The notes under the pieces: model-generated
The model's input: only the letters and a program-made list of their open reading frames with translations
Database searches by the model: none
Told to the model about the DNA's origin: nothing
Program-made: the position numbers and the translations under genes
Assembly (NCBI GenBank): GCA_964187785.1
Contig: OZ076409.1
Span: 66,466,001-66,530,000, forward strand
Length of the DNA stretch: 64,000 nucleotides
Source: Amphiscolops sp. MND2022
Lineage: Eukaryota
Direction: 5' to 3'
In this document: piece by piece, positions 6,049-52,720 of the stretch
How the letters are laid out: each line of letters opens with the position of its first letter
Numbering within the stretch: position 1 is the stretch's first letter

Positions 6049-6094
6049 TTAATATTTGTTTGCTTTAAATTAACGATATTGCTACCGCAACATC

Positions 6095-9066: not shown

Positions 9067-11389
9067 CTTTTCAAAAGCTGTGTTTGCCGTGGCCAAGTCC
9101 AGTGGCGAATTTGTGTTTGCCTTCATGACAAGTATAGCATCGACCGGGAGCGGGTCGTGACAGATAATAAGACCCTTCCAAAAGTTTGCTCCCAGGGGAA
9201 CTTTAGAGTATTCGTTGTTCTAAATAGCATCAAACAAAGCCTGCAATAAGATTTATCGAAATTGACTGCCTCTGTTCCGTTGCATAAAATGCCAAAATAG
9301 TCCACAACCTTGCTCTTTTTTGAAGTTGGAATTACTATGCGGTACAGAGTATTATCAGTCAAGGATCTGAAAAATAGAAAAGATGAGGGAAAAATGAATG
9401 AGCACGAAGTTCACATAAAGGTAAAGAAAAGAATGAAGTAACAAAATCCGTTCATTAGGTGAAATCCGTTCCGAACCGTTAGTCAACATCGAGTTACCTA
9501 TCTGGGCTGTAGAGGAGCGAGTGTGTCTTTTCAATCAAATTTGCTGTTTGATTAGTTTGAGTTGACGTTAGTAATTGTTCACGCAGGCGTACGCGGGTAT
9601 ACATCGGTGTGAATGTCGTGGAGGTCAAACAAGTCGGTGGTGCACACCTCTACTTTCTAGAAGTACGAATATATATGCCATTTTCGTTTATGGACGATGA
9701 GTTAGGCACCTAAGGCCAATGAATCGCGAAATGCTTTTTTTTGACAATACAAAGAATCTTGGAAACCCAAACCGATAACTTGAATCTGCTAACAAATGTT
9801 GCAAGTACTTGATTTTTAGTCAACGCTTTTTGTGGAAAAACGCAGACTATAGTGGTGACTTTTCTTTTTTAGTCGGCGCTTTTCGTAGGAAAACGAAGAC
9901 AACAGTAGTGACTTTTCTTTTTTTAAGATCAACGAAGTGACAGATTTTATAAGCTTTAGGAGCTGGCTTCCACTAATTGCATAGAGACTACTGGCACTTG
10001 TTACTACTACTGCCACTTTTCAAAAGCTGTGTTTGCCGTGGCCAAGTCCAGTGGCGACTTTGTGTTTGCCTTCATGACAAGATAGCACCGACCGGGAGCG
10101 GGTCGTGACAGATAGTAGGACCCTTCCAAAAGTTTGCTCGCAGAGGAATTTTAGAGTATTCGTTGTTCTAAATTGCAACAAAGCAAAGCCTGCAATAAGA
10201 TTTATCGAAATTGACTGCCTCTGTTCCGTTGCATAAAGTGCCAAAAAAGTCAACAACCCTGCTCTTTTTTGAAGTTGGAATTATTATGCGGTGCAGAGTA
10301 TTATCAGTCATGGATCTGAAAAATAGAAAAGATGAGGGAAAAAAAGGTCACGAAGTTCACAAAAAGGTAAAGAAGAGAATGAAGTAACAAAATCCGTTCA
10401 TTAGGTAAAATCAGTTCCGAACCATTAGTTCCGAACCAACATCAAGTTACCTATCTGTGCTGTAGAGTAGCGAGTGTGTTTTTTTCAATCAAATTTGCTG
10501 CTGGATTAGTATAAGTTGACGTTAGTAATTGTTCACGCCGGCGTACGCGGGTATACATCGGTGTGGATGGCGTGGAGGTCAAACAAGTCGGTTTTGCACA
10601 CCTCTACCCTCTAGAAGTACGAGTGTATATGCCATTTTTGTTTATGGACGATGAGCTAGGCACCTAAGGCCAATGAATCGCGAAATGCATTTACTTTTGA
10701 CAATACAAAGAATCTTGGAAACCCAAACCGATAACTTGAATCTGCTAACAAATGTTGCAAGTACTTGATTTTTAGTCAACGCTTTTCGTGGAACAACGCA
10801 GACTATAGTGGTGACTTTTCTTTTTTAGTCGGCGCTTTTCGTAGAAAAACGCAGACAACAGTAGTGATTTTTCTTTTTTCTTTTTTAAGACCAACGAAGT
10901 GACAGATTTTATAAGCTTTAGGAGCTGGCTTCCACTAATTGCATAGAGACTACTGGCACTTGTTACTACTACTGCCACTTTTCAAAAGCTGTGTTTGCCG
11001 TGGCCAAGTCCAGTGGCGACTTTGTGTTTGCCTTCATGACAAGATAGCACCGACCGGGAGTGGGTCGTGACAGATAGTAAAACCCTTCCAAAAGTTTGCT
11101 CGCAGAGGAAATTTAGAGTATTCGTTGTTCTAAATTGCAACAAAGCAAAGCCTGCAATAAGATTTATCGAAATTGACTGCCTCTGTTCCGTTGCATAAAG
11201 TGCCAAAATAGTCAACAACCTTGCTCTTTTTTGAAGTTGGAATTATTATGCGGTGCAGAGTATTATCAGTCATGGATCTGAAAAATAGAAAAGATGAGGG
11301 AAAAAAGGAATGGTCACGAAGTTCACATAAAGGTAAAGAAGAGAATGAAGTAACAAAATCCGTTCATTAGGTAAAATCAGTTCCGAACC
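9067..11389 (+). repeat. ~960-bp tandem repeat: units 1 and 2 and first part of unit 3
   Basis: Units start CTTTTCAAAAGCTGTGTTTGCC at 9067, 10016 and 10978; unit 3 is interrupted by the Gypsy insertion. Confidence 0.93.
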
Positions 11390-13557
11390 TGTCGAGCCCC
11401 ACTGTGTGGGCCGGCTTTGAAGAACTTTGCGATGACGAAGGTAAGTTATTTTCGTCACTTTTACTAATAACTGCCATTAATAAGTTCTTCAGTTGACTAA
11501 ACTCGCTTTGTAACTCGTTTATCTTCTTCTCATAGTTTTCCCTTATTTCAGACAACTGGGACGAGATATCTGAAGCTTCGTTGTTGTCAGAGTCATTGGC
11601 GGACGACTGAGCCATGTCTGGATCTATTGGAGAGGAGGTTTCTGACGAGGAATTTATAACTCTACCGCTTCTAAGTTCGGTGCCTTGATCTGGATTCATG
11701 TAATCGAGAGAAAAGAATTATGAGAAGACTGAATTATCTGAGATGTTGTTTCGATGTATTTTACTGATTTAAGTGGTTATTCGATCTCAAAATTCACTAA
11801 TCTGAACTGAGATGTTTTAGGAAAATGAAGTCGTAACGAGCAAGTAAGCAGTTAGGTAAGAAGAAGGAAATTAGCAAGTTAGGAAAAGTTCATCCGATTT
11901 TCATCGCAGTCGTAGATGTACCAAGAAATTACTCAAATTCAGTTCTGTACCTTCTGAAGATGAAATAGAGATGTGTTTTAATGGCTTTCACGTGTTAAAA
12001 TATCCAACCGGTCGGTAGCTTGTCTCAATTTGGGTTCTCTTGTAATCGCTAATGGCGGTCCAAATTACAGCAGTTCACGTGTCTTTTCGGTTGGTAAGAC
12101 GCTAAATCTCTTACCAACCTTCTCTCATTGGCTGTTACCAGCTGGTGTTAAAATGGTAAGTCACGTGACCAGTGTTGTGAACTGCCGCAAGGTGGCTACG
12201 CATCATGGTACATCTACATATGTTAATGGTGTTTAGTCATCAATTTACAATGTCGCAATTGCCTGCACGTAGCATCATGGTTTCTACAACAACTAAAATG
12301 AGCTCAAATCATTCAATAACGCACTAATTTTAAGTCAATCTAAGGTAAAGCACAATCCGGGATGGGAAAACGATGTTTTCCGCTGACTCTAGCGCCAAAA
12401 CCAATGATTTAAAAATTGAAGATGGAAAAGCGATGAACTTGTAAGAATATTTGCTGATTTTCAAGTCTAGTTTAGCTCTGGATGAAAATGCGATGAATGG
12501 TGGTCTTTCTCGCTCGAAAATCAACACAATTCAAACTGACGATGATAAAAGGATGAACTCCACGTATAATTTGCCAATTTCCAGCACAGATTAAACTGAC
12601 GATGAATTCGGGATGAATCCAGTCGATAAATGCCAATTCTAGTACAGGTGAATTTTGGCGATGGGTTTAAGATGAACTTGTCAGTTAAAACAGCAAATAC
12701 CAAAGCAATATGAACTGGCGATGAGTTTAGGATGAACTCATCCTCCAAAATGGTTAATTTTTAGCACGGACGAAATCAAGATGAATTAAGGATGGGTTTA
12801 CTAAACAAATCAGATAACCAGCACTTTCACTCTTTTTTAGGATGGATTAAGGATGTACTTTCTCATTTCACTTCTGTACTAGTGAACACGATGAGTAAAG
12901 GATAGGTTACTGTTCAGGAGTTTCTAAGTGAGATAATCGCGATGAATTAAAGATGAGTTTTGCTAAAATAAGTCCCATAAAATCCGCTGATGGATAATTG
13001 ATGAAAATTAGTTTAAAGTCCTATGTAAAGTTCACTCGCAATTTTTGAGGATGGGGTTGCGATGAACTTTAGTTAAAAGCACCGTTGAATCCGCTGATGG
13101 ATTCCAAGTGAAATTTCTAATCAGGTCAAAGTCATCACCAAATTCGACGATGAATTTGTGATGAATTTAGTGGAATTTGTCACAACTACATACTCTGAGG
13201 CGGGGAGTTAGTAGAAGTTATACTTTCCATTACTTTCAATATCTCTCGGTCCAGTCTGACCGGAAAACTTCTCTCCCTTGTCGTGACAAACCAATATTTA
13301 TGAAATATAGCACTTTTTCAAGGCCATTTTCTGGCAAGATCATTTATGCGGACATCGGAACTAGAGCGCTCAGTATTAAGTAAATATATATAACTCACAC
13401 TCAAGGGGGGAAGGGATTAAAGTACAAGTAACGTAGGGTTGCTCACAACCATGGCCTTTATTATATGACATCATATTGCCCATATCTAAGTACATAGGAC
13501 ATAATATTTACATTACAGATATTTAGTAGATTATATTTCCATCATGCTGGCATGACA
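11390..13557 (-). repeat. 3' LTR of the Gypsy element
   Basis: Near-identical to 28403-30599; preceded on the minus strand by purine-rich GGGGAG (13558-13563). Confidence 0.95.
12361..13163 (+). promoter_or_regulatory. Phased GATG-N7-GATG motif array in the LTR (second copy at 29380-30205)
   Basis: Motif at 12361, 12421, 12481, 12541, 12601, 12660, 12720, 12780, 12841, 12941, 12989, 13050 and 13149, with divergent spacers. The array is seen directly; a regulatory role is inferred. Confidence 0.7.
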
Positions 13558-14699
13558 CTCCCCGGGGTGGGATTTGGATTGAGAATGCAGGGGCCAAATG
13601 TGCAGAGGATGGTTGTCTCGGCGTTGGCTTCGACTGCTTCCTTCGTTTAGTTGGGGAGAAAATGACCTTCGTTAGTTCTGAATTGGCATGTCCTTCGTTT
13701 ATTCTGTCCTATGCAAACCTTCTCTGAGAAGAGGACTTTCGGCAATCGTCATGTCTGGTTTCAATCTGGGTGATTTCGGTTAAATTTTCTCGACGCGGCA
13801 ACTCTAGTTCTTGGTCCATCGAATGTCCGCTGACCTGCATTTTATTGGTTGTCATGCTTTTGATGGGAGTTTCGGCTGGTTATTTTCGGTAGAAGTTGAT
13901 TTCTTCGGAGAAAAGTTTCCCTCCAAAACGCCTACACTGAATAAACAATTCGACTAGCTTCATTGACAAATTGGCAGCGAGTCGGAGATGAATGAACGAT
14001 GAATTGTTTTTACGGCGAGACATCGATGTTGATTTAGCAGACGAATGGCGTCGTTGCTCTACTATCAGCTTCCGCGATAAGAAAGAGATGACTCGTTGTC
14101 ATAGTAACCGTTGAAGCTACTTCCGCTGTCTGAAATCTCAGCGATCAGAAAGAGATGGCCTGTTGCCATAGCAATCACTGCTAAATCTGATTGGCTGAAA
14201 ACTGAATTTTCTGAACTTAAAGAAATCCAACCGATTGTCAACAAATATTCTCATCCTTGAATCATCTTCCGTCAAGTCGGTTTTGAAAATCGCCACGATT
14301 TCCTTTGCGCGTTTCCGCTCAACTTCATCGGTATTGATCTGAGACTGGCAGCTGTCATCAAAATCAAATACTTGAAGTTTTTGTAGTCAAATTCTGGGGG
14401 GTGATTCATTTTCAGAGAAAATTGTCAAGTTGGTTGAACTAGGAAGAAAAGTGTAGGCAGTCATTGAAATCGGAGAGTTTTTCATCGATTTTCCATCTTC
14501 TGAATTCCAAGTATTTGGTTTGTCCTGGCATTCAAGCTGTATCCGCGCTCTTTGAAATTTTCCGCGAATTTGTATCTCGCAATCATGGTTGATCAGGCCA
14601 TTTAATTACTGATCAAATTCTTGTCCTCAGATTCTTCGATTTCGTTCCTTTCCGCACTCTCTTCCGTTCCTTTTCAGATTGTTTTGCAAAACTACAGTG

Positions 14700-16169
14700 A
14701 TGTCTGACATCCAATTTGTTCATTCTCTTCCAGAGACCGAAGCTACAGAAAGTAAGTTTACCATTTTCTTTTCTTTCACAAACGGGTCAGGGAACAATTA
14801 GGTGCTGAAAACGCGTCTTGGCTTTTTAGCGGACTCGGTTCAATCTGTCGGCGTCGTCTCTGAGCTGACTACTTTGCAGACCGTGCCGCCTCAAGAGGCT
14901 CCCGAAGCTCAAGCAGCAGCTCCTGAACCTCAGTTTCAACTTGATCACCCGTTTGGTCAGGCTCCCAATGTCCCGTATCTTCCGCAGTGTAAGTTCTGTC
15001 CCTCCAGATCTTCAATTCAGTCCACAATCTCTTCATTCCTCATCTCTGGTCCCTTCAGATGTTGACTCTTTCCGTTTGATGTTTAGATCATTATCCTTGG
15101 CATGCTTCCCTCGGTAGCATCACCTTCGAGTGGTATGATCGCCACATGCGGGACATGCTACGAGATAGCATCCAGCAGTATAGTGAGTTGACTCCTTTTC
15201 ACATTTCCGTCTGTACTAAGGTATCGTCCGGACACTCCGATGTAATTCCGATGTAAACATCTCATCTGCATGTAGTGCCCTTCACGGTCGATTACCTATA
15301 AAATTCATTTTTGAAGATGAATCTGGGATGCGTCATGGACATTCACTGTCCTTCGTGGCTAATCCGTTTGCGAATTCCATTTTTGAGGGTGAAATTTTGG
15401 TGACTTCGTTTCCCGTTTTCTTTCTTCGCGCGGTGTACGCGCACTCTCTTCATCATCTGTCGTCGTCTGATTTTTTGTTTTTCTTCTTTCAGGTCCGACT
15501 CCTATCCACGCCCCAAGGCCTCTCCCTATCACGTACTCCGTGGGTATAGGAACGAGCAACTTTGGTGCATCACAGGTTGATGCTGCTACTCAAGGAGGGC
15601 CTTCTTCCCTGGAGATGTCCTCGTTCCTCCAGGACTTGTCTCTGGGTGCGATCAGCTCCCCAGTGGCACGTGCCCCAGTGTCGGTGCTCTCGCCGAGCTT
15701 TCAGCGATTTCTGGACCGCGAATCAGCAATTGAAAGTCCTTCTCCTCCTGTTCGCGTCACCGTAGAGGCAGGAGTCAGTGCCGTCGTCACTCCTGTGGAT
15801 GTGGCAGTCGATGCCTGCGTGGCTGTTGTTGACCAGTCCGTTCAGGCCGTTGTGGAAACTGGCGAGACTTCCACGGATTATGATCCTCCTGTGGAACCTC
15901 TTTCAGCTGCTCCCTCTCCGCCAGCTAGTAGTGTCCCTGAAACTGTGGAGGCTGACGTTGGGCAGTCTGACGTGCCATCAACCGACAGCACTGATACCCT
16001 TCTAGAAGCAGTCGAGGATGTCCCTGCTGGTGATCCTCTGTCCGCTGAGCTGCTCCAGAAGGTGCTGTTCCCGGTCTGGTTCCTGTGTCTGCTGAGACGT
16101 CTCCCATGGGACCCAGTCTCGTGGACTCCGACGACGAGCCCATTGCGTCTCGCTTGCCAGGTTACCTAA
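14700..16169 (+). CDS. Antisense spliced accessory gene A in the Gypsy element (low-complexity Pro/Ser/acidic protein)
   Basis: Exons 14700-14751, 14830-14988, 15087-15182 and 15493-16169 are joined by GT(A/G)AGT...AG phase-1 introns that keep the frame. A probable frameshift near 16050 suggests it may originally have continued into gene B. Confidence 0.6.
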
Positions 16170-16757
16170 ACAGCTTTAACCCTGTGAAGTATCTGATCGG
16201 TAGCTTTTTTTCATTTCTTCTTTCATTTCCACTTTCACCAGTGTTTTTCACGTCTTTCTTCTTTTCCATCTATTTTCCATCGTTTTTCTATTTTTCTATA
16301 TGATTTTCTGCAGTTTTTCATTTTCCATCACTTTCTCATCGCCAAAAGTCTTGAGTATAGCGTTTTTTCTTTTCTGATCATTTTTTATAACTTTCCATCT
16401 CTTTTACATCCTTAAATTTTCTCGTTCGGTTTTTAGTTACTCTATCGTTTTCTTTTCAGTTTACATCTCTTTTTCATCGAAAAGTTATTTTCGCTTTAAA
16501 ATATCTCAATTTTGGTTCAAAGTCGTTCTATACATCTCTTTTTCATCGTTCGGGGCTTCCGTCTTTTAAAGTTTCAATTTTCTGTCCTGGTGGCTTGCAA
16601 ACACATCTCTTTTTCATCTTTTCGTTTTTTCGTCGTTTCTCGCTTATATTTCCAATGAAAATATTATTTTACATCATGTTTTCATCACTCCGGGTGAGGT
16701 TTTTTTTGAAATGTTCGGTTGAATTTCTATTTTTCGGTATTCTAGGATGTGTAGAGG

Positions 16758-19469
16758 ATGGAGTTAACAATTTTCGTTATTCTTTTGATATCAGGAAGGA
16801 AAATTCTCAAGTCAGCGTGGTTTGACCACGCTTATTGTGGATTGGCGCTCGGTTTCCCGAAGGATCACCTGACGCGCGATTCGTACGCTAGATGTCTACT
16901 CTGCAGGCAAGATGTCAAGATCGGTAGCCGCGGTATAACAACCTTCTTTGAACACTGCCGGGGAGTCAGACACCACCGGCTGGACTGTCTGACGCGATTG
17001 CGAAGGGGCCTACCGCTGCGCAGACGAGATGGGACACTGATGTCCCAAGCCGATTCAGACGTATGTGGTGCCGCATTAATTGGTGAGTCAGTGCCGTTGA
17101 TTGAGACCTGTCCAGATGTGACTGTTCTGGAGGCACTGCAGATCGAGGCGAGTGATGGTTCAGTGTGGGGCACAAGGCGAGTCTCAGAGGATGTCGACCA
17201 CATTGACAGTTTTCGGTTGTTCGTGTGTCTAGTGATTGATGCGGTCTATCGGGACTGTAATTTCGCAAGTGTGGGACATCTTTGGGACCTGATGGTTGCC
17301 TCCAATTCGCAGCATGCTATCATGTTTGGCGCGACTTGTCGAGAATCCGACGTTCTGGTTATTATGAATCTTTTCCGGATGCATGAAATAATTACATGTT
17401 GCATGTATTGTTATTTGTATGGTACATGTGAAACTTCCGAAAATTTTGGAGTATTTGTATGAAAAATTCCTTTTTTTTATTTTTTTTTAAAAAACTCCAA
17501 GGTTGGGGTGTGTGTTAAGTGAGTGGTGAGTAGGTAACTATATGAGAAAGTAAGACGATGATTGTAGGATGAATGTATGGTCTTGTTTTAGAGCGTTGTT
17601 CTTGTTGGGCTCTGGCCGTTTGTGATTGGTTCGTGGTCCGAAACAGAATACAGCAGTTTCGGTGTCACATTAGTGGCGGACAGAGTGGTGGGCACTCTGA
17701 ATGTATGTACCTCGGAAGGGCCTGCGAACTATGTGGTCTTTTCATTTGTTTATGGACAAGAGTGGGAGCAGCGAGTGGTCTCGTGGGCTGTCAATATGGT
17801 GTGTTGCGCTGTGGGGCAATTGGCACCTGTTGGCCTCAATTGTCGACTGTTGTCTGGGCTGGAAAGGGTGTTAGTCAGCCGCTCTGGACCAAGGACAGTC
17901 TCACTTGTGTCGTTAAAACTTACCGAGCTAAACAAGCGTCTGGTGGATGCGAGCATTCGTGTGATGGGCGGGAAAGATGTACATACGATATTGAACCATT
18001 TGCAATCAAGGCTAAAAGAATTCGTCCGGGACCCAATCTTTTTAGCTTGTCCAAAGCTCTTGCAGGTAACTATCTGCTATTTTTCGATTATTTTTCACTG
18101 ATGTTGATGTGTCAATTTTTGGGGGTGATGCTTTTCGTGGTTGTATCGTGTGTAATTTGGGAATTTTTTATTTTTATAAATTCTTGTTTGTTATAGTCCG
18201 TGTTAGACGGAGAGGTAACCCTCTGGGACGTACCGGACGTGTTGGCTGAGTTGTCCGAGAATTGGGCAGAGGTCTCGAATCTGTTGAGAGTGCCTAGTGG
18301 ATCCGGCATCATTGAGTCTTTGGACTTTGTGCTGTGTGGGGATCGTGCTATCCCTTTCCGTTTGCAGGCCTTAGCTAGTGTCTTTCGTGCACGTATGTAT
18401 GTTTTTTGTTTTCTTGGTCCATGTCGTTTCGTTATTTACAGTGTCTTAATTTAATAAAAGATATTTGGTTCGGGAATCGAGTAGAGAGCGTGTGACTTGA
18501 CTATGGTTTTTTTTGCATTAATTTTTGTTGTTTTCAGTCGTCGATTCGTATCGCTGGAGCTTCAGCAGTTGTCCATTGAGGAGTTTTCATTGGGCGTACG
18601 AGAGTGCGTGTTTTGTGCACGCAATCTTAGTCAAGCTGATAGACGACGATGACCTGCCTAGTGTGACTGAGGTGAGGGCTTGCTTGGAAGTGGACGTGGA
18701 CAATTTGACTGTGTCAGATGCCAAGTTGCGAGCCATGAGGGATGAATTCGGTCCCTACTTAGGGCAAGTTGCAGAAGCTGCCGTAATTGATGAACACTTG
18801 GCGATGGTGCAAAGCTTCATGTTTGTAGTGGTTGAAGAAATTCTAGCTGCTTCCGGGATGAAAGAAGAGGTGACGTATCATTTGAGTGTGGGTTGTCCTG
18901 CTCTTTTGTTGCGTGGTGAAATTGACGTTTTACGAAATGAAGCTGAACAATTTACTGGATTGCTCATGGATCTGAGGAGGATAGGACTCGCTGAGAAGAG
19001 ACGAATGGATGGGAGCTTCGTCTCATTCGTGACCAACTTCAGGCAGAATGCAGTTGATTTGTCCGTAGGCAGTGCAAGTTCAGCAGTGGACATTTTGCGG
19101 GCATGTGAGAGTTCATCGTGTCAACGCTTCTTCCGTTTCTTGATGTGTCTGGGTGAGACTCCTGTATTCCCAGCAGGTATCAGTTGCGTCAGCGTGGGAG
19201 GGTTGAGCAGTGATGTTACGACAAGTGTGTGCTCAAGTATTCTAAGTTATTTGAGGACGCATTCCATCAGACAGTTCGAAACTGTGAGTGGGCCGTTACT
19301 TGAGGAGGTTACGGAGTCAATTGGTCATTTCACAGCTTTAGCAGATTTGACAGAAGAGATGCTGTGGGATGATGTAGGAGTGGTCGCTGATGAAGAATAC
19401 CGTCAGTCGTTGTACGATGCGATCGGATTTACAGCTGCTGGAGAGCGCGCAGCTAGCCCTGAGGTTTAG
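16758..19469 (+). CDS. Antisense spliced accessory gene B in the Gypsy element: N-terminal BED/C2H2-like zinc finger plus unknown domain (~730 aa)
   Basis: Exons 16758-17357, 17592-18065, 18197-18392 and 18538-19469 are joined by GT-AG introns (phases 0, 0, 1) that link the four ORF-track frames exactly; ARCLLCRQDVKIGSRGITTFFEHCRGVRH zinc-finger motif. Confidence 0.75.
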
Positions 19470-22342
19470 AATTGACTTTCTGTTTATTATTATTTTTTGA
19501 AACTGTTTGTATCTTTCATGTTATTTTATATTACTGTATGTTATAGTATTGTATCTAGCAAATGGGTGACCAATTTGTATGTCGCCTTAAGTGACATGAG
19601 AGAGGGAAAAAAACGCGCTGCGTCGGAAAAATCGGCAGTGTACTATGTACAAGTTAAATATTTGGCACCCGAAATTGTTTTTCTCTTGAGTTAATAGTGA
19701 GTGGGAATGCAGGTAGAATTCAGTTAGGTTCACACTAGTTAAGTTCATTTGGTAGGTTGCGTCAATCGGCGGCTCTGTTTTTCATTGGTCATCGCTTCCC
19801 TATCATTTTTCAGTTGATAGAAATTGTAAGAGACTTTTGTCACGTTGTTCATCGTTATTACATCTCGTGTAAGTGTAGTTAGATTATCAGTGTCTCGTTG
19901 TGATTTTTCATCTCATTTTCATCACGTTTTCCTCAGTCGGCCGAGCGACGTCGCGAAAACTGTTTCCTCATCTTTTTTACATCGTTCGTTATATGTGAAT
20001 CAGTGCATGTTGTTACATGTGGTTTTTCTACATAGATCATCGTTTTTTCATCTGTCGTTTTCATTTTAACATTTTGGCTAGTTTTTTGCTGTATTTCATC
20101 GTTTTTGCATCGCAAGTTTTGGCTTGTCGGATTTTGCTCATTTTGCTGCATAGTTCATCTTCTTTTCATCGTAATTTTGGAAAATATTTATCTTGCGTGT
20201 TTTTCGTGTTTATTTTACTATAACGTAATCGAGAGTTGCATTTTTCATGGTAGATGAGGGTATTTTATCAATTTTGCGGTAATTTGGGAGTGTTTTCTTC
20301 ATGTATTTTAGTGTCATATGGTGTTGATCGTTTGTTAGGTTGTCGAAATTGCATGAAATTTAGTGTACATGTGTTATACTCATTTTCGTTGCGTTTCGGA
20401 TTTGTCAAAGTTTGAACATCATTGCATGAATCATTTTTTCGGACTCTTGTGACCGCCAATAGCGTGGCAGTCGAAGAGATGTTCACTCAGCAATGGTATT
20501 GGTACCCCGTAGGCGTGCAAGGTTCTTGAGGTACCAATCTAGAGCTGGGTGAGTGGAGCTGCTCCGCTCCTTTCAGATGAATGAATTCTCTCAGTTTTGA
20601 GCTATATATAGACTTCATGTTAATTTTTACGTGTCGGTTGTTTGTCATCAGACGTCGAAATGGTTTTGTCCATTTGACGTTTAATCTGATCAATCAAGGT
20701 GATTGACATCTATGGCTTTGCATGTTTCGAATTATTAAATTTTGTGATATTGTGTGGTTTCATGTTCGCGTGTTTTCATAATGTATTCCTTTAAATGGGT
20801 TGCCCCATTATCGACATGTTGTTATATGTTCGGTGTTAGTTTCAAGTATTTTAATTTGGTGTTTTTATTTTCGTTCATTTGGACAGGGCTTTGTCGTCAC
20901 AAAGCCCCTACAAAACTAACTGAGAATCCACTAGCCGCTGGATAACCAACGCAGCAAGCTTCATCCGAATATGGTTGTGAGCTCCCCGCCTCAACTAACC
21001 AGCACTCTTTTCAGAGAAATGCCAGCCAGCACGAAGGAATGTTTTGGCTTTTCGATGGGGGTGTTTTGCTTGTTATGAACTGATGTTTACTGGGGGGCTC
21101 ACTCCTTTATTCGTTTTGTGGTTGTTTTGTCAGTTCGTATATTTTGCATGTAAGTTAGTAGGCTTCATGTATTTTCGATTGTTTGTTTCATTTTCATTTT
21201 TCTAGGATTGTATGTCTTTGGTTTGAATTGCATATATTATCTCGTTCATTTTTAAACGGTACATGTATGTTTCCGTGTGTTGCTCATTTGAATTGCATTT
21301 AGTTTGGAGTTGTCAATTTCTTTCGTGACGTCATTGATTTGGCAGGTCTTTGAACCTTACATGTATTGTTCATTTTCGTTTTTGTGAGGCATAATTCTAT
21401 TTGCGTGATTCGAAATTAGTTCGGCGGTTTTTTGTCGTTTCGTGGAGTTACATGTTGTCTGAGAATTAGCTGATTTATTGTGATTTTATGTGGATGGTGT
21501 TTCCCATCACAAGGAGGTTATCGTAAGTCATTTAATATTTTCGAATTTCCATTTAGACTAAATTCATCGTTTTGACATCCTCCAGCGAAGCTAGAGTATC
21601 GTGTCAGGCTAACGATAAATTCGGTCACGATTTGATGGTAGTTTCCATCACAAATTCATCTCATTAATTGTTTTCATGTAAGTTCTGAATAATTGAATCG
21701 AGTTCATCGGTATTTCATCCTCTAGCCGAGCTAGAGTATTATGAAAGCATGAACGTGAGTGCGTTCGCATTCTGATGGCATTTTCCATCTCAAATGCATC
21801 GCTAGTAAATATTGTATGTTGATTGGTCGAATTTTTGACTGAGTTCATCACTTTTTCATCTCTCGTGTGACTGAGATAAATTTTCATGTGATTTCATCCT
21901 TTTTTCATCTCAAAATTTTATGTGTTGTTTTTTCTGGGTTTTTTGGTCGTTTTTCATCCGTTTTACATCGTGTTTTGTTTTTATGCGTTTTTCATGTGAT
22001 TTTTAGTAACTTTTCATCCATTTTACAACTTCATGTTCATTTTAAATTGAAATTGCATGTAATTGATTCGTTTTTGTGAATTGTTCAACTTTAACACATC
22101 GTGTGTTTTGAAATGTTGTTTTACTTGGCTAAATCGTTACGTTTACTTTGTTGGTCTTTCTCAGAGAGTTTCTGGCTGATGTAATCTCATGAATAAGGAA
22201 GTCAGGATATTTTTTCGGTGTAGGGTTCTCGCGTAACCTGTACCTACTCTGATTGTTTCTAGACGGTCTAGAACTCATCCTATCCTCATCTTCAGTTTGC
22301 GTGTTTGTCTGTTGTGACTGATTTTCGTGTTGTTCGTCTCTC

Positions 22343-23515
22343 TTATCCTACTCTCATCGCGGGGGGGGGCGGTAGAATAATTTCCTCTTGCGTTCCAAAT
22401 CTAACTGTAGGTGGTCTAAAGTTGTTGTGGTCAGTTTCTACTTGCTGATATTCTATTCTCGTGGTTATTTCTGGTGGAATTACTTGTGGACTGTGTCGTT
22501 CTTGTACCTGCGGAATTATTTCTTCTGAAGGCTCTTCTTCGACTAAGTCTTGATCTAGATTGTCATTCTCATTCTGATCTACTTCGTCGGTCGTCGGAAA
22601 ATTCGAGTCGAAAATGTCCGTGTCTTCAACCCTTTCAGCGACTGGGTAGAGATGTTTGGACACGTTGATGTCATCAATCGGACATTCCGGTTTGAACAAC
22701 CTCAGTCGCATTCTGTGTACGCACTGAGTCTGGTGTGTGCCTACTTTGCGGATGATGTAGTTGCTATCGGATAGCACTTTCATCACCTTGTACGGTCCTT
22801 TCCAATGGAAAGTTTTAAACTCTTCTTTGCTTGTCTGAGAGTCGTACTTAGGATCTAGTAGGAACACAAATTCATTCACCTTCAGTGGTTGTGCTCGTGC
22901 TTTTCTATCATAGTACATTTCGTACTTGTGATAGGCGGAAATGATGTTATCTAGATTGTCTCTGATGAAGTTCATTTTGTCTAGAATTTCGTTCACGTCC
23001 TTGCACTTTGTTTCAGCCGGCTTGTTTGCGTTTCGGAGTTGCAGATCTAGTGGGTTGTATGGTGTTCTTCCGTGGAAAATTACAGTTGGTGAACATTTCA
23101 GTGAATCATGATACGTTGTGTTATGGGCCATGATTGCTATGTCGACATAGCGGTCCCATTGTGGTCTGTCTGCGTTTACACTAATTTTAAGGATCTTTTT
23201 CAGTTTCGCGTGCGTTCTCTCCACCATGCCTATTGTCTGTGCGTGCTTTATCGTGGCATGGGAGATGTGAATATCAGCCGCTTTCGCGATTTCAGACAGA
23301 AGTTCAGCCGTAAACGCCGTGCCCTTGTCCGTCAGAATGTGCTTGGGCACATACGCGTGTTTCGTGAAGATCGACAGTAATCCTCTGACTACGGAATGTG
23401 TATCAGGTCTCTTCAGCGGAACGGCGAACAGGTAGCGCGAAAAAACGTCAACAGCCGTCAGAATGTGTGTAAAACCGTTCGACGCCGGGAGTGGACCAAC
23501 GATGTCTATTTCCAA
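22343..23515 (-). pseudogene. Gypsy integrase core and C-terminus (frameshifted from pol)
   Basis: IDIVGPLP, VDVFSRY, TDKGTAF, GMVERTH (DDE); WKGPYKV (GPY/F); tail ...RYRLRENP continues to about 22130. Confidence 0.92.
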
Positions 23516-26500
23516 CAGGTCTTCTGGTCCGTCGCACGGGTCGTAGATTTTTGTAACGGTGGACGTAGTTGCGTTTCTTTTACACTTTTAGATTTCATGA
23601 AGTTTTCACAACCGTCAAGGACTTTTTGAACTTTACAGGCTAAGTTAGGAGAGTAATATCTTTTACGAAGTTCGTACACCATTTTCTTTAAACCAGGGTG
23701 TCCTTGTACCGGGCTGTTATTTAGAGTCCTAATTATTTTCAAAATACAGTCTTCAGGAACAACTAACTGCTTGTGAGACTCCAGTCCCGTGTGATCAAAA
23801 AACTGTCTGTACAAGACACCGTTTACAACTTGTAGGCGTTTTCGATTTTTGTGCAACTTTTGAAAAAACTGATCTTGCATATTAACTGGGTGTTGCAAAA
23901 TTTCAGTACCTTCTAAAAATCTAATCATTTTTTGAATAACCCAGTTATTTTTCTGGACCTGAATTAGATCGATCCCCTCAGCGGGGCTAACCTGACTCAT
24001 TACCGGGTGTGATAATGATACTTTACGGATGAACTGCGAGAGTTGAATCGGCTCGTTCACGTCTGTGAGGCGGTACGTCAGATGGTTGTCAGTCGCGAAG
24101 TCATCTGAGGCCGCTGTTCTCTCACAGTTGGTGAACTTCATCCCTTTCCCATCGTCATGAGCCACGTCAGTGCCAGTTGCCAATTTCATCTGTTTGACAT
24201 CCTTCTGGCGTTTGCATCTGAGTGGTTCGCTCGTGGGAAAGTAATCAGGCTCGTCTTCCTCCTGTTTTGGTGTACGGGAGGCGATGTCGATCTCGATTCT
24301 GTGAATTGGAATAGTATCAGTCAATTTTAAATGTACACGGTCTTCAGGTCTAATCTCAAGCCGAGATAAGTAACCCGCTGCGGGATTTTCAACTCCTGGA
24401 ACATGTGCTAATAAAAAATTGAACTGAAGGGTTTGATCGCAAAAGTTCCAAAGTGAAGGCGGGATATGCTTCGCCTGAAAAAATCTAGTCAAGGCCTTAT
24501 TGTCAGTCATAACAATGATGGGTTTTTTTGCACCCCACAAAATGTGGCCAAATTCATCGAAGGCAAAGTGCATAGCTAAAAACTCTTTGGCATACATTGT
24601 TAGAGACATCTGGCCGCCCTGAAATTTCTTGGAGCCAAATGCAACAGGGGCGTATGTTTGTTTGACTGACGGGTCAGCATAATCCTCAATTAACAAAACA
24701 TAGCCGGCAGCGTGTTCGCTGGCGTCACACATGATTACCAATTGTTTATCAGGTAATGGCAATTCCAGAAACACTTTTGTTGCTTTTAACAAACTTTCAT
24801 TGATTTCAAAAATAGCATCTTTATGTTGTTGGTTCAGCTTGAAAGGGACGTCCTTCTTGATCAACTCCTGTAAACAACAAGTTTTATCAGCTAGGCGGGG
24901 AATATAAGACCTGTAAAAGTATACAAAACCAAGATAACGTTGCAACGCTTTCACTGAATTGGGGGGTTTCAACTTGGTTAAGTAATCTGTTACGCGTTTT
25001 TCAATGGGAGCAATACCGGTGCTAGAAATGGTTTTTCCCAAGTACTCAATTTGTTTTTGTCCAAATTCACATTTACTCATGCTAAGTTTAAGACCAGCTT
25101 TGTTCAACTGCTGAAAAATAAGTTCAAGGTTATTGATCAGTTCGTCAGGGGTGTGTGCTGCAATTCCAATGTCATCAACATATTGAGCACACCGGTCCGC
25201 TTTGACCAAGGGGTCCAAATTCTCACGGACTACACTTGTGAATGCTGACAAAGAACGATTAAGACCCTGTGCTAGACGTAAAAAGGCAAAAGTTCTAGAA
25301 CCAAAATTAAACGATAACAGTTGGACAGACTGCTCATCGGCCATTGGGATGCAATGGTAGGCCTGGGAACAATCAAGTTTACAGAAATACTTTTTCCCGG
25401 CCATGTGTTGGGCAGCGTCAGCAATTGTTGTTACGGGATGGTTGTGTTCACCGTAATCGTTTTTGATCAAGTGGTTTATTCTTCTCAAGTCAACTAAAAT
25501 CCTCAATTTACCATTAGGTTTACGTTGAGCAAATATCGGAGATGAGTATTTGCTGTGAGGCAAAGTAGTTATGATCCCGTACTCTTGCATTAAAGCTAAC
25601 TCTACGAGCAAATCGTCCTTCAAATTTGTCGGAGTAGGGAGACTTTGTGAATAAACAGGTTCTTCATGTTGGGGTGTTAGCTTAACTTTAAAATCAGTGT
25701 TCATGCCAATATCAAAACGATGTCTAGCAAAAATGGAGTTGTACTTTACCAGCAACTCCTCTACCTGTAACCGTTGAGACGGAGTAAGAAGCGAGTCGTC
25801 CCAGTTGAAGTTCTTCAGGAAGTTCATCCGTTGTTCATCGGATTGGGACGGGTCAAGCTTCTCGAGCTCTCGCAGTGCCAGAATCTCATCATAGATTCGT
25901 CGCTCAATTGCGTTGAGTTTGTCTGGCTCACTGCACGTCTCGGGAGTTGGGTACCACTTGGTTGACTTCATTTCAGGGTTCACGAACAGTTGGTTGATCA
26001 CCGCTTTCGCCTCATCTGGGTACTTGGTGATCAGGTTCAAGTGTTCGACTGGCATAGGTGTGATGTTCGCCGCCTGATGTGGTGTCGGTATGCGAAAGTG
26101 TGCCAGAGTGGTGTTGGCATCAAGTGTGAACGTGTGGTTGTTCGGGTTGGTGACCTGGATTGTCGTATTGCCCTCGTCTAGGTCAACCAAAGCTGGGGAA
26201 ACAAGCAAACACGTCTTTCGCATGAATCCAGGTGAGCCCTCAACTGTACCAGTTGTAAGTGAGATGTCCGCGTCACTGTGGACCTGTATCATCACTTGAT
26301 GGAGAGGAGGGATCACTGTTCTAGTACTGGAACACAAATCAATTAAACCAGTTTTGAATCTGTTGTTCTTTTGCTGTCTAACTTGCATGGACATCATGTG
26401 ATTAGGGAAGTGGACAAGGTGGTTTTTTATGTCTAAGTTGACTGAGTACTTTTCAAAGAATGACAATCCAATTAAAATTGTGCCCATTGTTGGAAGGATT

Positions 26501-27210
26501 AGGAACGTTTCTTCAAAGACTTTTCCAGCAACGTAAAATCTAAGTGAGACTTGCTTACGCACTGGGACTAAGTTCCCGTTTGCTATTTGAATTTTGAAAT
26601 TCGGAGGGGGAAGTTCTTGAAGGATGGCTTCTGGATGAGCCGTTGTTATTTTTCGCAATTCTGCTTCAGACATTGCGCTTTGAATTGCGCCTGTGTCTAA
26701 CAGTGCATGGTTTTCGTATTTATCAAACTGAAGAGGGACGTACAGCATTTTATCTTTCTTGTTTAAATGTAAAGTGGGACTAAGAACGTGAATTTCTGTT
26801 TTAGTTGCATGTTTGTTATCTTTTGAAATGTTAATACTACTATATTTTGCATGTTTTTTAATACTAAGCCGTTTGTCGATTGTTGAGTATGAAGTCGAGT
26901 CGTCGTCTAGATGGTTGGTGTCCATCTCTTTGGCATCGTCCACCTGCCTCATGGTGTTTTGTTGCCAGTTCATCGTTTGTTCATCGTTGATTTCAGCGAG
27001 TGGAGAAAAGCGGCTGCCGTTGCGTTGACGTGCATTTCCCATCGCTTTTTCATCGTTGGAAAGTCTTCGCTGATAGACGTCGTCAGCTATTGGTCGTTTG
27101 TCCAGTGAAGGCTGCCATTTCTTCATTGGACGGTTGTGTGTAGTCGGTTGAGTCGAAAGTCGTTTGTCGCGCGTTGTATTTCTAGCGGGCGGAAATCGTG
27201 GCTGAATCAA
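23506..27210 (-). CDS. pol: Gypsy Pol: protease, RT, RNase H, integrase zinc-finger region
   Basis: ALLDTGA; LRILVDLRRIN; LDCSQAYH; YVDDI; MCDASEHAAG; MTDNKAL; GHPG...C..(C). Confidence 0.95.
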   Translation of the reverse strand: MIQPRFPPARNTTRDKRLSTQPTTHNRPMKKWQPSLDKRPIADDVYQRRLSNDEKAMGNARQRNGSRFSPLAEINDEQTMNWQQNTMRQVDDAKEMDTNHLDDDSTSYSTIDKRLSIKKHAKYSSINISKDNKHATKTEIHVLSPTLHLNKKDKMLYVPLQFDKYENHALLDTGAIQSAMSEAELRKITTAHPEAILQELPPPNFKIQIANGNLVPVRKQVSLRFYVAGKVFEETFLILPTMGTILIGLSFFEKYSVNLDIKNHLVHFPNHMMSMQVRQQKNNRFKTGLIDLCSSTRTVIPPLHQVMIQVHSDADISLTTGTVEGSPGFMRKTCLLVSPALVDLDEGNTTIQVTNPNNHTFTLDANTTLAHFRIPTPHQAANITPMPVEHLNLITKYPDEAKAVINQLFVNPEMKSTKWYPTPETCSEPDKLNAIERRIYDEILALRELEKLDPSQSDEQRMNFLKNFNWDDSLLTPSQRLQVEELLVKYNSIFARHRFDIGMNTDFKVKLTPQHEEPVYSQSLPTPTNLKDDLLVELALMQEYGIITTLPHSKYSSPIFAQRKPNGKLRILVDLRRINHLIKNDYGEHNHPVTTIADAAQHMAGKKYFCKLDCSQAYHCIPMADEQSVQLLSFNFGSRTFAFLRLAQGLNRSLSAFTSVVRENLDPLVKADRCAQYVDDIGIAAHTPDELINNLELIFQQLNKAGLKLSMSKCEFGQKQIEYLGKTISSTGIAPIEKRVTDYLTKLKPPNSVKALQRYLGFVYFYRSYIPRLADKTCCLQELIKKDVPFKLNQQHKDAIFEINESLLKATKVFLELPLPDKQLVIMCDASEHAAGYVLLIEDYADPSVKQTYAPVAFGSKKFQGGQMSLTMYAKEFLAMHFAFDEFGHILWGAKKPIIVMTDNKALTRFFQAKHIPPSLWNFCDQTLQFNFLLAHVPGVENPAAGYLSRLEIRPEDRVHLKLTDTIPIHRIEIDIASRTPKQEEDEPDYFPTSEPLRCKRQKDVKQMKLATGTDVAHDDGKGMKFTNCERTAASDDFATDNHLTYRLTDVNEPIQLSQFIRKVSLSHPVMSQVSPAEGIDLIQVQKNNWVIQKMIRFLEGTEILQHPVNMQDQFFQKLHKNRKRLQVVNGVLYRQFFDHTGLESHKQLVVPEDCILKIIRTLNNSPVQGHPGLKKMVYELRKRYYSPNLACKVQKVLDGCENFMKSKSVKETQLRPPLQKSTTRATDQKTCWK

Positions 27211-28712
27211 AAACCCTGGTTAATGTCTTCATCAGAGTAGCTTAGTTGTTCGTCGTCTTCAGTAATTGCTTGCATTGGATTCATCGGCTTTTGCTGTCGT
27301 TTTAAATCTTGTCGTCTAGCCTTGTTGTCGTCCTGTGAATTCGTTGTGTATGGAATCTTTCCATATGCAGAGCTGCTTTCCTTGGGAATGCGTCGTCTGC
27401 AGTCTCTTGCAGAGTGGCCGGTGTATCCACAAATCAGACAAACCAGCTTGGGATTGTACTTCGGTTTGTCTGGGTCGGTTGCTTTCTTCATCGGAATTGC
27501 ATCTTCTTTCTTAATGCCGTTTGCTTCGTCACGTTGTCGGGCGCGACATTCCGTTTTGCGGTGACCTGTCTTTCCGCAGTAGAAGCATTGTCCCTCAAAT
27601 CGTTTTCGTTCTGTCGGTTGCGTTGTCGTCGTTGTTGCTGGTTTAATCGTTGTGTTGGTCGTTGGGACCGAGGAGGTGACCGCGTTAAATGGTTGAATTG
27701 CCGTAGGTGGCGCAACGTACTGCTGGTACTGGTACTTTCTCATCAAGTATGTCTTGATTTCTTCTGGTGAGCTCTCCTCCTTATTGGCCATCGTAAGTTC
27801 TTGTTGTATTTCGACTGGGAGTTTACCGAACAAGAACATTTTGATGATTTTATCCGCTTCTTCCCCAAATGCTTGTTTCGCAGTCTTTTTCAAGTTTTTG
27901 AGGAAGTCGCTGAATGTTTCTGTGGTGGGATCGTAACGGGCTTGATCCCATTTGTAGCGAGCTACTTCTGTAAGGTCCTCTTTCGCGAATTTTTTCCTGA
28001 AGAGGTCGAGTACATCTTTCAGCGTTGTTAGTGGCGTTATCTGGATGGATTGCCAGTACTCTATTGCATCATCTCTCAAAAGGCTTTGAAAGAAGTGGAG
28101 TTTGTTCTCTTCGGTGATTTTGTTGGCGAGCGGGCTAAGGTGGTTGAGGAGAAGGTGCTCGAATTCCACGAATTTGTCTTTTTGGCATCTGAAATTTGGG
28201 ACGTGTGTCTGTAGTAGTTTCGTGTTGGTGGTGGTGCTTTTGATTCGTTGGGGGATCGTCTCGATTGCATTGAGTAGTCGTTCCTCATTGCTTCTAGGAG
28301 TTGATTCACCTTCTTCGTCCGAGTCGTCTTCTTGGTATGTCCTGAAGTTTGTGAAGCTGGATGTCGGGCGGGTGGAGCGGGTTTCTGTAACTCCTGTCAC
28401 CATGTCGAGCCCCACTGTGTGGGCCGGCTTTGAAGAACTTTGCGATGACGAAGGTAAGTTATTTTCGTCACTTTTACTAATAACTGCCATTAATAAGTTC
28501 TTCAGTTGACTAAACTCGCTTTGTAACTCGTTTATCTTCTTCTCATAGTTTTCCCTTATTTCAGACAACTGGGACGAGATATCTGAAGCTTCGTTGTTGT
28601 CAGAAACATTGGCGGACGACTGAGCCATGTCTGGATCTATTGGAGAGGATGTTTCTGACGAGGAATTTATAACTCTACCGCTTCTAAGTTCGGTGCCTTG
28701 ATCTGGATTCAT
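27207..28712 (-). CDS. gag: Gypsy Gag with two CCHC zinc knuckles; ORF starts inside the 5' LTR
   Basis: CFYCGKTGHRKTEC and CLICGYTGHSARDC; ATG at 28712 lies within LTR 28403-30599. Confidence 0.93.
   Translation of the reverse strand: MNPDQGTELRSGRVINSSSETSSPIDPDMAQSSANVSDNNEASDISSQLSEIRENYEKKINELQSEFSQLKNLLMAVISKSDENNLPSSSQSSSKPAHTVGLDMVTGVTETRSTRPTSSFTNFRTYQEDDSDEEGESTPRSNEERLLNAIETIPQRIKSTTTNTKLLQTHVPNFRCQKDKFVEFEHLLLNHLSPLANKITEENKLHFFQSLLRDDAIEYWQSIQITPLTTLKDVLDLFRKKFAKEDLTEVARYKWDQARYDPTTETFSDFLKNLKKTAKQAFGEEADKIIKMFLFGKLPVEIQQELTMANKEESSPEEIKTYLMRKYQYQQYVAPPTAIQPFNAVTSSVPTTNTTIKPATTTTTQPTERKRFEGQCFYCGKTGHRKTECRARQRDEANGIKKEDAIPMKKATDPDKPKYNPKLVCLICGYTGHSARDCRRRIPKESSSAYGKIPYTTNSQDDNKARRQDLKRQQKPMNPMQAITEDDEQLSYSDEDINQGF
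27210..27216 (-). other. -1 ribosomal frameshift slippery heptamer G GGT TTT at the gag-pol junction
   Basis: CAG GGT TTT TGA ends gag; the -1 frame (GGG TTT TTG ATT CAG) is the pol frame; matches X XXY YYZ. Confidence 0.75.
28391..28402 (-). other. Primer-binding site (tRNA-Leu-like) of the Gypsy element
   Basis: TGGTGACAGGAG immediately follows the 5' LTR end; one mismatch to the tRNA-Leu complement TGGTGTCAGGAG. Confidence 0.6.
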
Positions 28713-30599
28713 GTAATCGAGAGAAAAGAATTATGAGTGAAGACTGAATTATCTGAGATGTTGTTTCGATGTATTTTACTGATTTAAGTGGTCATTCGAT
28801 CTCAAAATTCACTAATCTGAACTGAGATGTTTTAGGAAAATGAAGTCGTAACGAGCAAGTAAGCAGTTAGGTAAGAAGAAGGAAATTAGCAAGGTAGTTA
28901 GGAAAAGTTCATCCGATTTTCATCGCAGTCGTAGATGTACCACGAAATTACTCAAATTCAGTTCTGTACCTTCTGAAGATGAAATAGAGATGTGTTTTAA
29001 TGACTTTCACGTGTTAAAATATCCAACCGGTCGGTAGCTTGTCTCAATTTGGGTTCTCTTGTAATCGCTAATGGCGGTCCAAATTACAGCAGTTCACGTG
29101 TCTTTTCGGTTGGTAAGACGCTAAATCTCTTACCAACCTTCTCTCATTGGCCGTTACCAGCTGGTGTTAAAATGGTAGGTCACGTGACCAGTGTTGTGAA
29201 CTGCCGCAAGGTGGCTACGCATCATGGTACATCTACATATGTTAATGGTGTTTAGTCATCAATTTACAATGTCGCAATTGCCTGCACGTAGCATCATGGT
29301 TTCTACAACAACTAAAATGAGCTCAAATCATTCAATAACGCACTAATTTTAAGTCAATCTAAGGTAAAGCACAATCCGGGATGGGAAAACGATGTTTTCC
29401 GCTGACTCTAGCGCCAAAACCAATGATTTAAAAATTGAAGATGGAAAAGCGATGAACTTGTAAGAATATTTGCTGATTTTCAAGTCTAGTTTAGCTCTGG
29501 ATGAAAATGCGATGAATGGTGGTCTTTCTCGCTCGAAAATCAACACAATTCAAACTGACGATGATAAAAGGATGAACTCCACGTATAATTTGCCAATTTC
29601 CAGCACAGATTAAACTGACGATGAATTCGGGATGAATCCAGTCGATAAATGCCAATTCTAGTACAGGTGAATTTTGGCGATGGGTTTAAGATGAACTTGT
29701 CAGTTAAAACAGCAAATACCAAAGCAATATGAACTGGCGATGAGTTTAGGATGAACTCATCCACCAAAATGGTTAATTTTCAGCACGGACGAAATCAAGA
29801 TGAATTAGGGATGGGTTTACTAAACAAATCAGATAACCAGCACTTTCACTCTTTTTTAGGATGGATTAAGGATGTACTTTCTCATTTCACTTCTGTACTA
29901 GTGAACACGATGAGTAAAGGATGGGTTAGTGTTCTTTAGAAATGAGAAGCACATTTCAGGAGTTTCTAAGTGAGATAATCGCGATGAATTAAAGTTGAGT
30001 TTTGCTAAAATAAGTCCCATAAAATCCGCTGATGGATAATTGATGAAAATTAGTTTAAAGTCCTATGTAAAGTTCACTCGCAACTTTTGAGGATGGGGTT
30101 GCGATGAACTTTAGTTAAAAGCACCGTTGAATCCGCTGATGGATTCCAAGTGAAATTTCTAATCAGGTCAAAGTCATCACCAAATTCGACGATGAATTTG
30201 TGATGAATTTAGTGGAATTTGTCACAACTACATACTCTGAGGCGGGGAGTTAGTAGAAGTTATACTTTCCATTACTTTCAATATCTCTCGGTCCAGTCTG
30301 ACCGGAAAACTTCTCTCCCTTGTCATGACAAACCAATATTTCTGAAATATAGCACTTTTTCAAGGCCATTTTCTGGCAAGATCATTTATGCGGACATCGG
30401 AACTAGAGCGCTCAGTATTAAGTAAATATATATAACTCACACTCAAGGGGGGAAGGGATTAAAGTACAAGTAACGTAGGGTTGCTCACAACCATGGCCCT
30501 TATTATATGACATCATATTGCCCATATCTAAGTACATAGGACATAATATTTACATTACAGATATTTAGTAGATTATATTTCCATCATGCTGGCATGACA
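28403..30599 (-). repeat. 5' LTR of the Gypsy element
   Basis: Direct repeat of 11390-13557 with few substitutions and ~23 extra bp near 29930-29955. Confidence 0.95.
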
Positions 30600-30604
30600 G
30601 AACC

Positions 30605-32204: not shown

Positions 32205-32209
32205 CGAAG

Positions 32210-37457: not shown

Positions 37458-37462
37458 CGAAG

Positions 37463-46817: not shown

Positions 46818-46834
46818 TCGTGAGGCATGTAAAT

Positions 46835-52700: not shown

Positions 52701-52720
52701 TTTGGTCCGCCGAACCGGAT

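Follow-up and report, generated by a model that had tools for sequence, protein, structure and literature searches.

Introduction

Among the closest described parallels to the system reported here is VANDAL/VANC of Arabidopsis, a plant Mutator-like DNA transposon with an element-encoded accessory protein, VANC, that works via loss of DNA methylation, and with a short motif that is amplified in non-coding parts and differs between related families (PMC5735166; this and the other sources are cited from the portions available). Here we describe a comparable arrangement in a Gypsy element that occupies positions 11390-30599 (19.2 kb) of a 64,000-nucleotide stretch of the Amphiscolops sp. MND2022 assembly (contig OZ076409.1, positions 66,466,001 to 66,530,000; the whole stretch is called the window below). 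The element is filled with the bipartite motif GATG-N7-GATG and carries an antisense gene with a BED-like zinc finger. A previous analysis made from the letters alone, the sequence-only reading, had drawn the VANC analogy for this element. As in VANC- and TnpA-type systems, an accessory protein is kept across families and a family-specific motif is amplified, with binding of one to the other predicted. In contrast to VANDAL, the carrier is a long terminal repeat (LTR) retrotransposon without a CpG-methylation signature, and the motif is bipartite and helically phased, has diverged spacers and enters pol codons.

Three other systems share part of this arrangement. Spm/TnpA resembles it in mode of working (bioRxiv 10.64898/2026.08.24.746577, whose available text never mentions LTR or retrotransposon). 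However, TnpA derives from the transposase of its own element and has the termini as its site of action, whereas the regulator considered here would come from another transposon class and its sites are element-wide. The plant Gypsy elements Retand, Grande and RIRE2 have a conserved antisense open reading frame (ORF) between pol and the 3' LTR, with a predicted DNA-binding domain (TRP28), family-specific tandem arrays and a function given as unknown (PMC11963269, PMC7264820). Theirs is a different protein, the word intron is absent from the available text of PMC11963269, and the portions available report no matching of motif to protein. Lastly, the BED domain of the hAT transposon Hermes binds a tetranucleotide followed by AT-rich DNA, cooperatively and in pairs (PMC10368747). 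The likeness extends to an N-terminal C2H2-type finger, a tetranucleotide core followed by AT-rich DNA and many sites per element. Unlike hAT elements, the gene studied here lies inside an LTR element, with no terminal inverted repeats and no invariant acidic position seen among exons 6 and 8.

PMD proteins, which structurally resemble VANC, occur in plant retrotransposons (10.1101/2024.09.27.615353). A 2019 review counts three anti-silencing mechanisms encoded by transposable elements (TEs), all from plants (PMC6719617), and the available text of a 2026 review contains neither the term anti-silencing nor VANC (PMC13269885). Our literature search, whose coverage left out most subscription papers and Repbase, returned no Gypsy lineage that combines a BED/hAT-like antisense gene with family-matched motifs.

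A phased, conserved motif in the window element

Within the element we counted 69 exact sites (37 GATG-N7-GATG and 32 CATC-N7-CATC), somewhat above the 55-60 that the sequence-only reading had claimed. Its prediction that a peak at a spacing of 7 would be confined to the element was borne out: inside the element every other spacing from k=0 to k=30 gave 0-5 sites, and the remaining 44,790 bases of the window hold 1 site. When one LTR was counted, the 53 sites compared with 0.5-1.6 expected under Markov models of order 0-3 and with a maximum of 6 in 200 simulations. A-rich bases tend to follow both GATG half-sites.

Many of the sites stand in arrays. Each LTR has 16: the 3' LTR (11390-13557, minus strand, 2,168 bp, TG..CA) has an array of 13 between 12361 and 13163, at steps of mostly 59-61 bp, and the 5' LTR (28403-30599, minus strand) is 2,197 bp long. 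Eight sites at steps of 59-71 bp fill intron 4 of the antisense gene just upstream of the zinc-finger exon (16267-16760). Six at steps of 59-69 bp lie in the spacer that separates pol from the antisense gene (19850-20170, minus strand), and a second spacer array of seven (21565-21969, minus strand) has steps of 49, 59-60 and 81 bp. Scattered sites between 13987 and 15330 are found upstream of the antisense gene (13987, 14252, 14483) and in intron 3 (15239, 15316); all positions listed in the sequence-only reading are correct save one, 14252, which it gave as 14232. Within the antisense gene, 10 sites are located in introns 3 and 4, 1 in intron 5 and 1 in an exon. Pol contains 8 sites, mostly in linker-coding stretches, and gag 1 beyond the LTR (27489). 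Window pol had 7 sites compared with 0.8 in synonymous-codon shuffles, the largest shuffle value being 4.

The gaps between adjacent same-strand sites measure 48-49, 59-61, 68-71, 77-81 or 99-100 bp, and the same sizes recur in the LTR, intron 4, the two spacers and the pol linkers. All 33 gaps of ≤105 bp fell in one half-turn of the helix (phase 3.5-8.5 of 10.5 bp) and none of 2,000 uniform draws was as periodic, a statistic limited by the mutual dependence of gaps inside one array. A recent tandem repeat was considered and rejected as the source of the LTR array: Tandem Repeats Finder reported no array over the LTR sites, and the units are 31-38% alike outside the motif.

Among 8 relatives, 95.5% of core bases in non-coding sites were conserved (2,498/2,616), compared with 82% for the spacer, 75% for flanks, 85% for lone GATG and 78.5% for all non-coding positions, figures to be read in light of the kinship of these relatives and of the help that motifs give in anchoring the alignments. 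The host genome (G000, 1.07 Gb) contains 100,399 GATG-N7-GATG sites versus 26,360 for a reversed control and ~26,100 expected by tetramer frequency, an excess of ~74,000 sites. Enrichment spread equally over the genome, which the sequence-only reading had named as a counter-possibility, was looked for in 20 random 7-kb stretches (140 kb), none of them matching the clade: counts at k=6, 7 and 8 were 5, 6 and 7, and random host DNA thus shows no k=7 excess. The last exon of the antisense gene has ~1,500-1,600 candidate loci in G000, which are first-look candidates and not copy numbers; at 33-56 sites each, they roughly account for the excess.

The motif is a real and strongly selected feature. 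It is part of a lineage-wide system, wider than first noted.

The antisense gene and its zinc finger

The antisense gene (14700-19469, plus strand) has ~1,060 codons in 8 predicted exons, supported by splice sites, matching phases and GT-AG introns: 14700-14751, ~14830-14988, ~15087-15182, 15493-16199, 16795-17357, 17592-18065, 18197-18392 and 18538-19469; for exons 2 and 3 the start was judged by eye. The sequence-only reading had divided this interval between two separate genes, A and B. We rejected that division, since the exon phases match and a single long ORF in sister families runs into the finger. The window copy is frameshifted near 16050, a position at which 9 of 9 close copies are open. 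The protein would consist of a low-complexity N-terminus, a zinc finger, an alpha/beta domain and a helical domain.

The BED-like finger lies at the start of exon 5 (16797-17009, plus strand) and has the form C-x2-C-x9-G-x6-H-x5-H. Residues C33, C36, G46, H53, H59 and R67 are invariant in 20 of 20 alignment rows, and within a motif class the finger is the most conserved part of the gene. Among its weak matches zf-BED is the commonest; 5 of the 20 rows hit it, all of them short of the threshold (best E 0.014). Ratios of nonsynonymous to synonymous substitution (dN/dS) in the unsaturated pairs were 0.02-0.09 for the finger (3 of 7 pairs), 0.26 for exon 6 (1 of 5) and 0.15 for exon 8 (1 of 6). 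As judged from these comparisons, the gene and its finger are under purifying selection.

Motif classes and finger types across the lineage

We surveyed 32 elements of this genome, taken from search lists so as to span diversity and including 3 from random sampling. The antisense gene was present in 31 of them, in the same position and orientation; the 3' end of one element lies outside the fetched stretch. A family motif was carried by 26 of the 32 elements, and these motifs fall into six classes (one LTR counted per element). Clades I and II carry GATG-N7-GATG, at 33-56 sites in 16 of 16 elements. The P0172/P0176-type has CCG-N5-GGC (20 and 15 sites); the P0202-type GAC-N5-GTC (26 and 26 sites, in near-identical copies); the P0223-type TAYRCG-N4-TAYRCG (10 sites in one copy, with arrays at 33-bp steps in intron and spacer); and the P0258-type AACAGCAT (44 and 10 sites, in an LTR array plus, in the first copy, a tandem array in an intron). 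The three randomly sampled elements share ACG-N8-ACG with an 11-bp period, at 41, 42 and 32 sites, and have 76-134 relaxed sites; another count of the 11-bp-period motif in them gave 39, 42 and 28 versus about 6.

Each motif class is high only in its own family, and each has its own zinc-finger type. The sequence-only reading had anticipated that motif and finger would change together across related families. Counts of a motif outside its own class were 0-6, except for ACG-N8-ACG at 5-21 in the GATG clades, in which ACGATG belongs to the GATG motif. Five of the six motifs are pairs with 10-11 bp geometry, and motif scan scores were 19-64 compared with 7-12 in 12 shuffles. In pol, motif counts exceeded synonymous shuffles reciprocally between two families (12 vs 2.2 and 12 vs 1.9) and in the ACG class (18 vs 4.1 and 9 vs 1.9), each with 0 of 500 shuffles; these tests are not fully independent, because the motifs were picked on the same elements. 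Random sampling also turned up a gene of the CCG type, with CCG-N5-GGC at 12 positions within 7 kb, and this gene with its matching motif is an independent test.

Between clades I and II, which share an unchanged GATG motif, the finger region is 49-54% identical, exon 6 28%, exon 8 24% and the reverse transcriptase (RT) core 95-96%. Between motif classes, identity to the window falls to 14-20% in the finger region, with RT at 71-73%. The residues up to the first histidine vary by class: ITTFFEH, PYEILRH, AREIVRH, SLEILSH and SGEFKRH. In the Hermes BED domain the helix that corresponds by eye to these residues enters the major groove (PMC10368747, available portion). The gene's homology across families was visible by comparison of profile with profile (hhalign): 97.8% for the last exon (E 8e-13, 276 columns) and 87.6% for exon 6, with controls at 0.1-0.2%. 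The window-clade profile compared with a single sister sequence gave no match. Because kin share motif, finger and pol, the co-variation is not proof of co-evolution, and it leaves room for host factors.

The lineage extends to other genomes, to judge from a last-exon homologue and a Pol in a protein collection that match G000 at just 30% and 67%. That collection holds at least 188 finger clusters, and all 120 among those listed are unnamed. Scans of IMG/VR and a metagenome scan with the last exon found nothing. A pol scan yielded 21 contigs (1-5.9 kb), too short for the test, with no gene match or motif excess.

Several elements depart from the common plan. One internally deleted copy (L077-L078, G000:C9:53.63 Mb; LTRs 99.7% identical) has no antisense gene and has kept the LTR motif array, making it a candidate non-autonomous target. 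Clade II (L023-L025, L036-L045) sets the motif in inverted pairs at a distance of 24 bp, of which 6 elements have 43, with CGATG half-sites favoured; periodicity in the spacing of same-strand sites was not seen in this clade. Members of clade I (L012, L015, L026-L035) are 38-83% identical to the window in the last exon and 85-96% in pol, and the two rankings disagree, which could reflect either fast evolution or swapping of the accessory module. Sister families have a second accessory ORF of 230-390 aa with C-x2-C near its end, in gag-pol sense, adjoining the 3' LTR and divergent from the antisense gene (L047:7025-7990, L053:7124-8080, L072:3990-4979, L076:3921-5084, L065:9119-9886, L068:4627-5316); Pfam returned nothing for the two scanned, and no homologue was seen in the window or in four GATG-clade elements. 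An LTR-like locus (L104, G000:C2:55.00 Mb) with a gag start, 7 GAC-N5-GTC sites in ~1.3 kb and no pol nearby is perhaps a solo LTR of another GAC-class family.

Proposed mechanism

We propose a VANC/TnpA-like self-recognition, in which the element's protein reads the motif of its own family and probably keeps copies open or transcribed; we place the probability of this reading at roughly 0.55. Each family's own finger and the motif that goes with it are observed directly, and from them we infer that the one binds the other. In such a scheme, the accessory gene of this Gypsy lineage would probably be a captured hAT-type transposase that has lost DNA cleavage; its antisense placement would let its introns survive in genomic RNA. 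The finger would read a 3-4 bp core, and an oligomer would use two of its fingers for two cores that lie one turn of the helix apart. With neighbouring pairs in phase, several complexes could align on the DNA and bind cooperatively. A finger peculiar to each family would have arisen, and the matching site would have spread through that family's LTRs, introns and spacers and even into its pol codons; the protein may act in trans on its own family only, including copies with a broken or lost gene. By analogy with VANC and TnpA in plant DNA transposons, the effect would most likely be an open or transcribed state.

As an interpretation, the sequence-only reading is partly supported. It overlooked that A and B are one gene, that this gene probably derives from a transposase, and that the sites stand in helical phase with one another. 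The wider account, by which a captured DNA transposase became, as an intron-bearing antisense gene, a family-specific lock-and-key regulator in dozens of families of one genome, each with its own finger and with DNA rewritten as far as synonymous pol codons, hangs in even balance. If self-recognition is correct, it would place TE-encoded, sequence-specific self-activation outside plants and outside DNA transposons, show how self-regulation can operate separately in each family among thousands of retrotransposon copies, suggest a function for antisense ORFs in Gypsy elements, and offer a natural library of zinc-finger/target pairs, with at least six finger-motif pairs predicted. Host chromatin, too, could be shaped by the protein, given that this motif alone is in excess by ~74,000 sites over the 1.07 Gb of the genome.

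A number of observations weigh against self-recognition as proposed. That the outcome is activation rather than repression is a guess from analogy. CpG is not depleted (observed/expected 0.98), and CpG transitions show little increase (2.3% versus 1.7%; 19 LTR pairs), which points away from CpG methylation in this host. The VANC comparison suits the anatomy of the element; given the lack of a CpG signature, any silencing that is opposed is unlikely to be 5-methylcytosine, and the VANC mechanism, loss of that mark, probably does not apply. Silencing based on histones or small RNA, or plain transcriptional activation, is likelier. The motifs were chosen after scanning the same elements, and in one copy the CCG motif is at the edge of noise (12.5 vs a null of 7-12). 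GAC-N5-GTC also occurs ~10 times in an unrelated 17/26-bp tandem repeat (L117, L127; G000:C10:30.006 Mb). The P0210-type family has the gene and, in a motif search of its copies, no motif above noise (6 of 6). No recombinant between motif classes was found, and motif, finger and pol share one history.

The evidence on the protein's origin belongs to the same list. We consider it likely that the accessory protein is of hAT-transposase origin, on signals that are below threshold. Pfam matched none of the window's exon ORFs (4 ORFs). The Atlas signal comes from a sister family's last exon alone, with 23 of 30 matches in a set whose leading cluster (0.93) has 60% of its members in PF05699, the C-terminal dimerisation/insertion region of hAT transposases. 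The same set includes FAM200/GTF2IRD2-like clusters, with just 133-153 shared features and a warning that 1 of the 10 best shares the top family; the window's own last exon gave no usable Atlas match. Pfam found no above-threshold family, PF05699 included, in 14 sister-family ORFs or 35 alignment rows, and no DUF1985 (VANC), TRP28 or PMD match in the 4 window exon ORFs, the 14 sister-family ORFs or the alignment members. The model of exon 6, examined for an RNase H-like catalytic fold (predicted local distance difference test, pLDDT, 64; predicted template modelling score, pTM, 0.38), consists of a helix, three strands and helices, with a best Z of 4.9 and no clear PDB match; the last-exon model (pLDDT 61) had no clear PDB match either, and PDB sequence-profile searches returned nothing. 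Across the aligned rows of exons 6 and 8 no D/E position is invariant; the most constant D reaches 89%, as read without a hAT alignment to place the DDE triad. Among 20 unexplained ORFs in fetched flanks, none looked hAT-like by eye.

The domain order and a number of short motifs are like those of hAT transposases, which is a lead rather than a test.

Alternative explanations

The alternative that survives best, although unlikely, is that the protein binds the family motif for self-restraint, by repression or clustering of copies, or for handling of the cDNA or integration complex. All of the motif-finger evidence applies to it equally. Sites extend over the full element and into pol, as coating by a protein would require, and there is no methylation signature to counter; a precedent that we count in its favour is the silencing of Tf2 LTRs in fission yeast by transposase-derived CENP-B homologues. 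However, the family-specific divergence of finger and motif would fit escape from a shared control more readily than a common restraint, and it is numerous, young families (LTR pairs 96-99.7% identical) that have the densest phased arrays.

Slightly more doubtful is a role for host transcription or chromatin factors, one per family, that would bind the motifs while the antisense gene serves something else. LTR families commonly use different host factors, which we count for this view, as we do the P0210-type gene without a motif and the deleted copy with a motif and no gene; shared ancestry alone can also align motif and finger classes. Host factors are harder to reconcile with the flat GATG-motif counts in 140 kb of random DNA and with a genome-wide excess that matches element count. 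Six host factors would have to be invoked, one for each of the unrelated cores, of which five show 10-11 bp geometry. Conservation of the finger holds inside a motif class and gives way to divergence from class to class.

That the sites are relics of tandem duplication, or pairing elements in genomic RNA (plus- with minus-strand sites), with no protein reader, seems very improbable: LTR array units are faintly similar (38% vs 28% shuffled), some sister families have true tandem arrays (33 and ~40 bp) and the 43 inverted pairs of clade II could form hairpins, but cores and spacing are kept where spacer sequence is close to background, four separate arrays and the pol linkers converge on steps of 48-49, 59-61, 68-71 and 81 bp, isolated pol sites exceed synonymous shuffles, and RNA pairing would preserve spacer and core alike.

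Other features of the element and the window

The ends of the element are as the sequence-only reading had placed them, with a target-site duplication, GAACC, at 11385-11389 and 30600-30604. The LTRs are 97.9% identical and end in TG..CA. Both gag and pol are encoded by the minus strand, and their order is that of Ty3/Gypsy elements: gag followed by protease, RT, RNase H and integrase (Pfam). Gag (27210-28730, minus strand) starts inside the 5' LTR and has two zinc knuckles (Pfam zf-CCHC, E 8e-7). Pol (22144-27219, minus strand) is broken into pieces in the window copy (23509-27219, 22346-23587 and a tail near 22144-22290). A purine tract adjoining the 3' LTR (13558-13577, minus strand) is, from its position, a putative polypurine tract, and a sequence beginning TGG within the gag frame (28385-28402, minus strand) is a putative primer-binding site. 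Pol residues 294-374, between protease and RT, have a weak dUTPase-like match (E 0.036), and some sister-family Pols bear a precomputed dUTPase label. Non-coding blocks at 20863-21055 and 13561-13853 are conserved between clades I and II and are possible RNA elements.

The element is inserted in a satellite (6093-11389 and 30600-39176) whose units measure ~470 and ~950 bp and which has a 53-bp internal repeat; a Copia element (33150-37123) is inserted in the same satellite. Elsewhere in the window are a non-LTR RT ORF (48155-50536), a PAN-domain ORF (41059-41730) and inverted-repeat copies resembling miniature inverted-repeat transposable elements (45264-47192). A BEL/Pao element (51089-59646) has two 1.48-kb repeats, 98.5% identical and likely its LTRs; together with the spliceosomal introns of the antisense gene, an element of this kind points to an animal host. 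Each repeat contains an antisense ORF of 293 aa (51267-52148 and 58348-59226, both minus strand) with a JmjC domain (Pfam 24.2 bits vs a cut-off of 24.0), which was absent from the fetched loci. H-x-D...H is visible by eye in these ORFs, which possibly represent a captured demethylase or hydroxylase.

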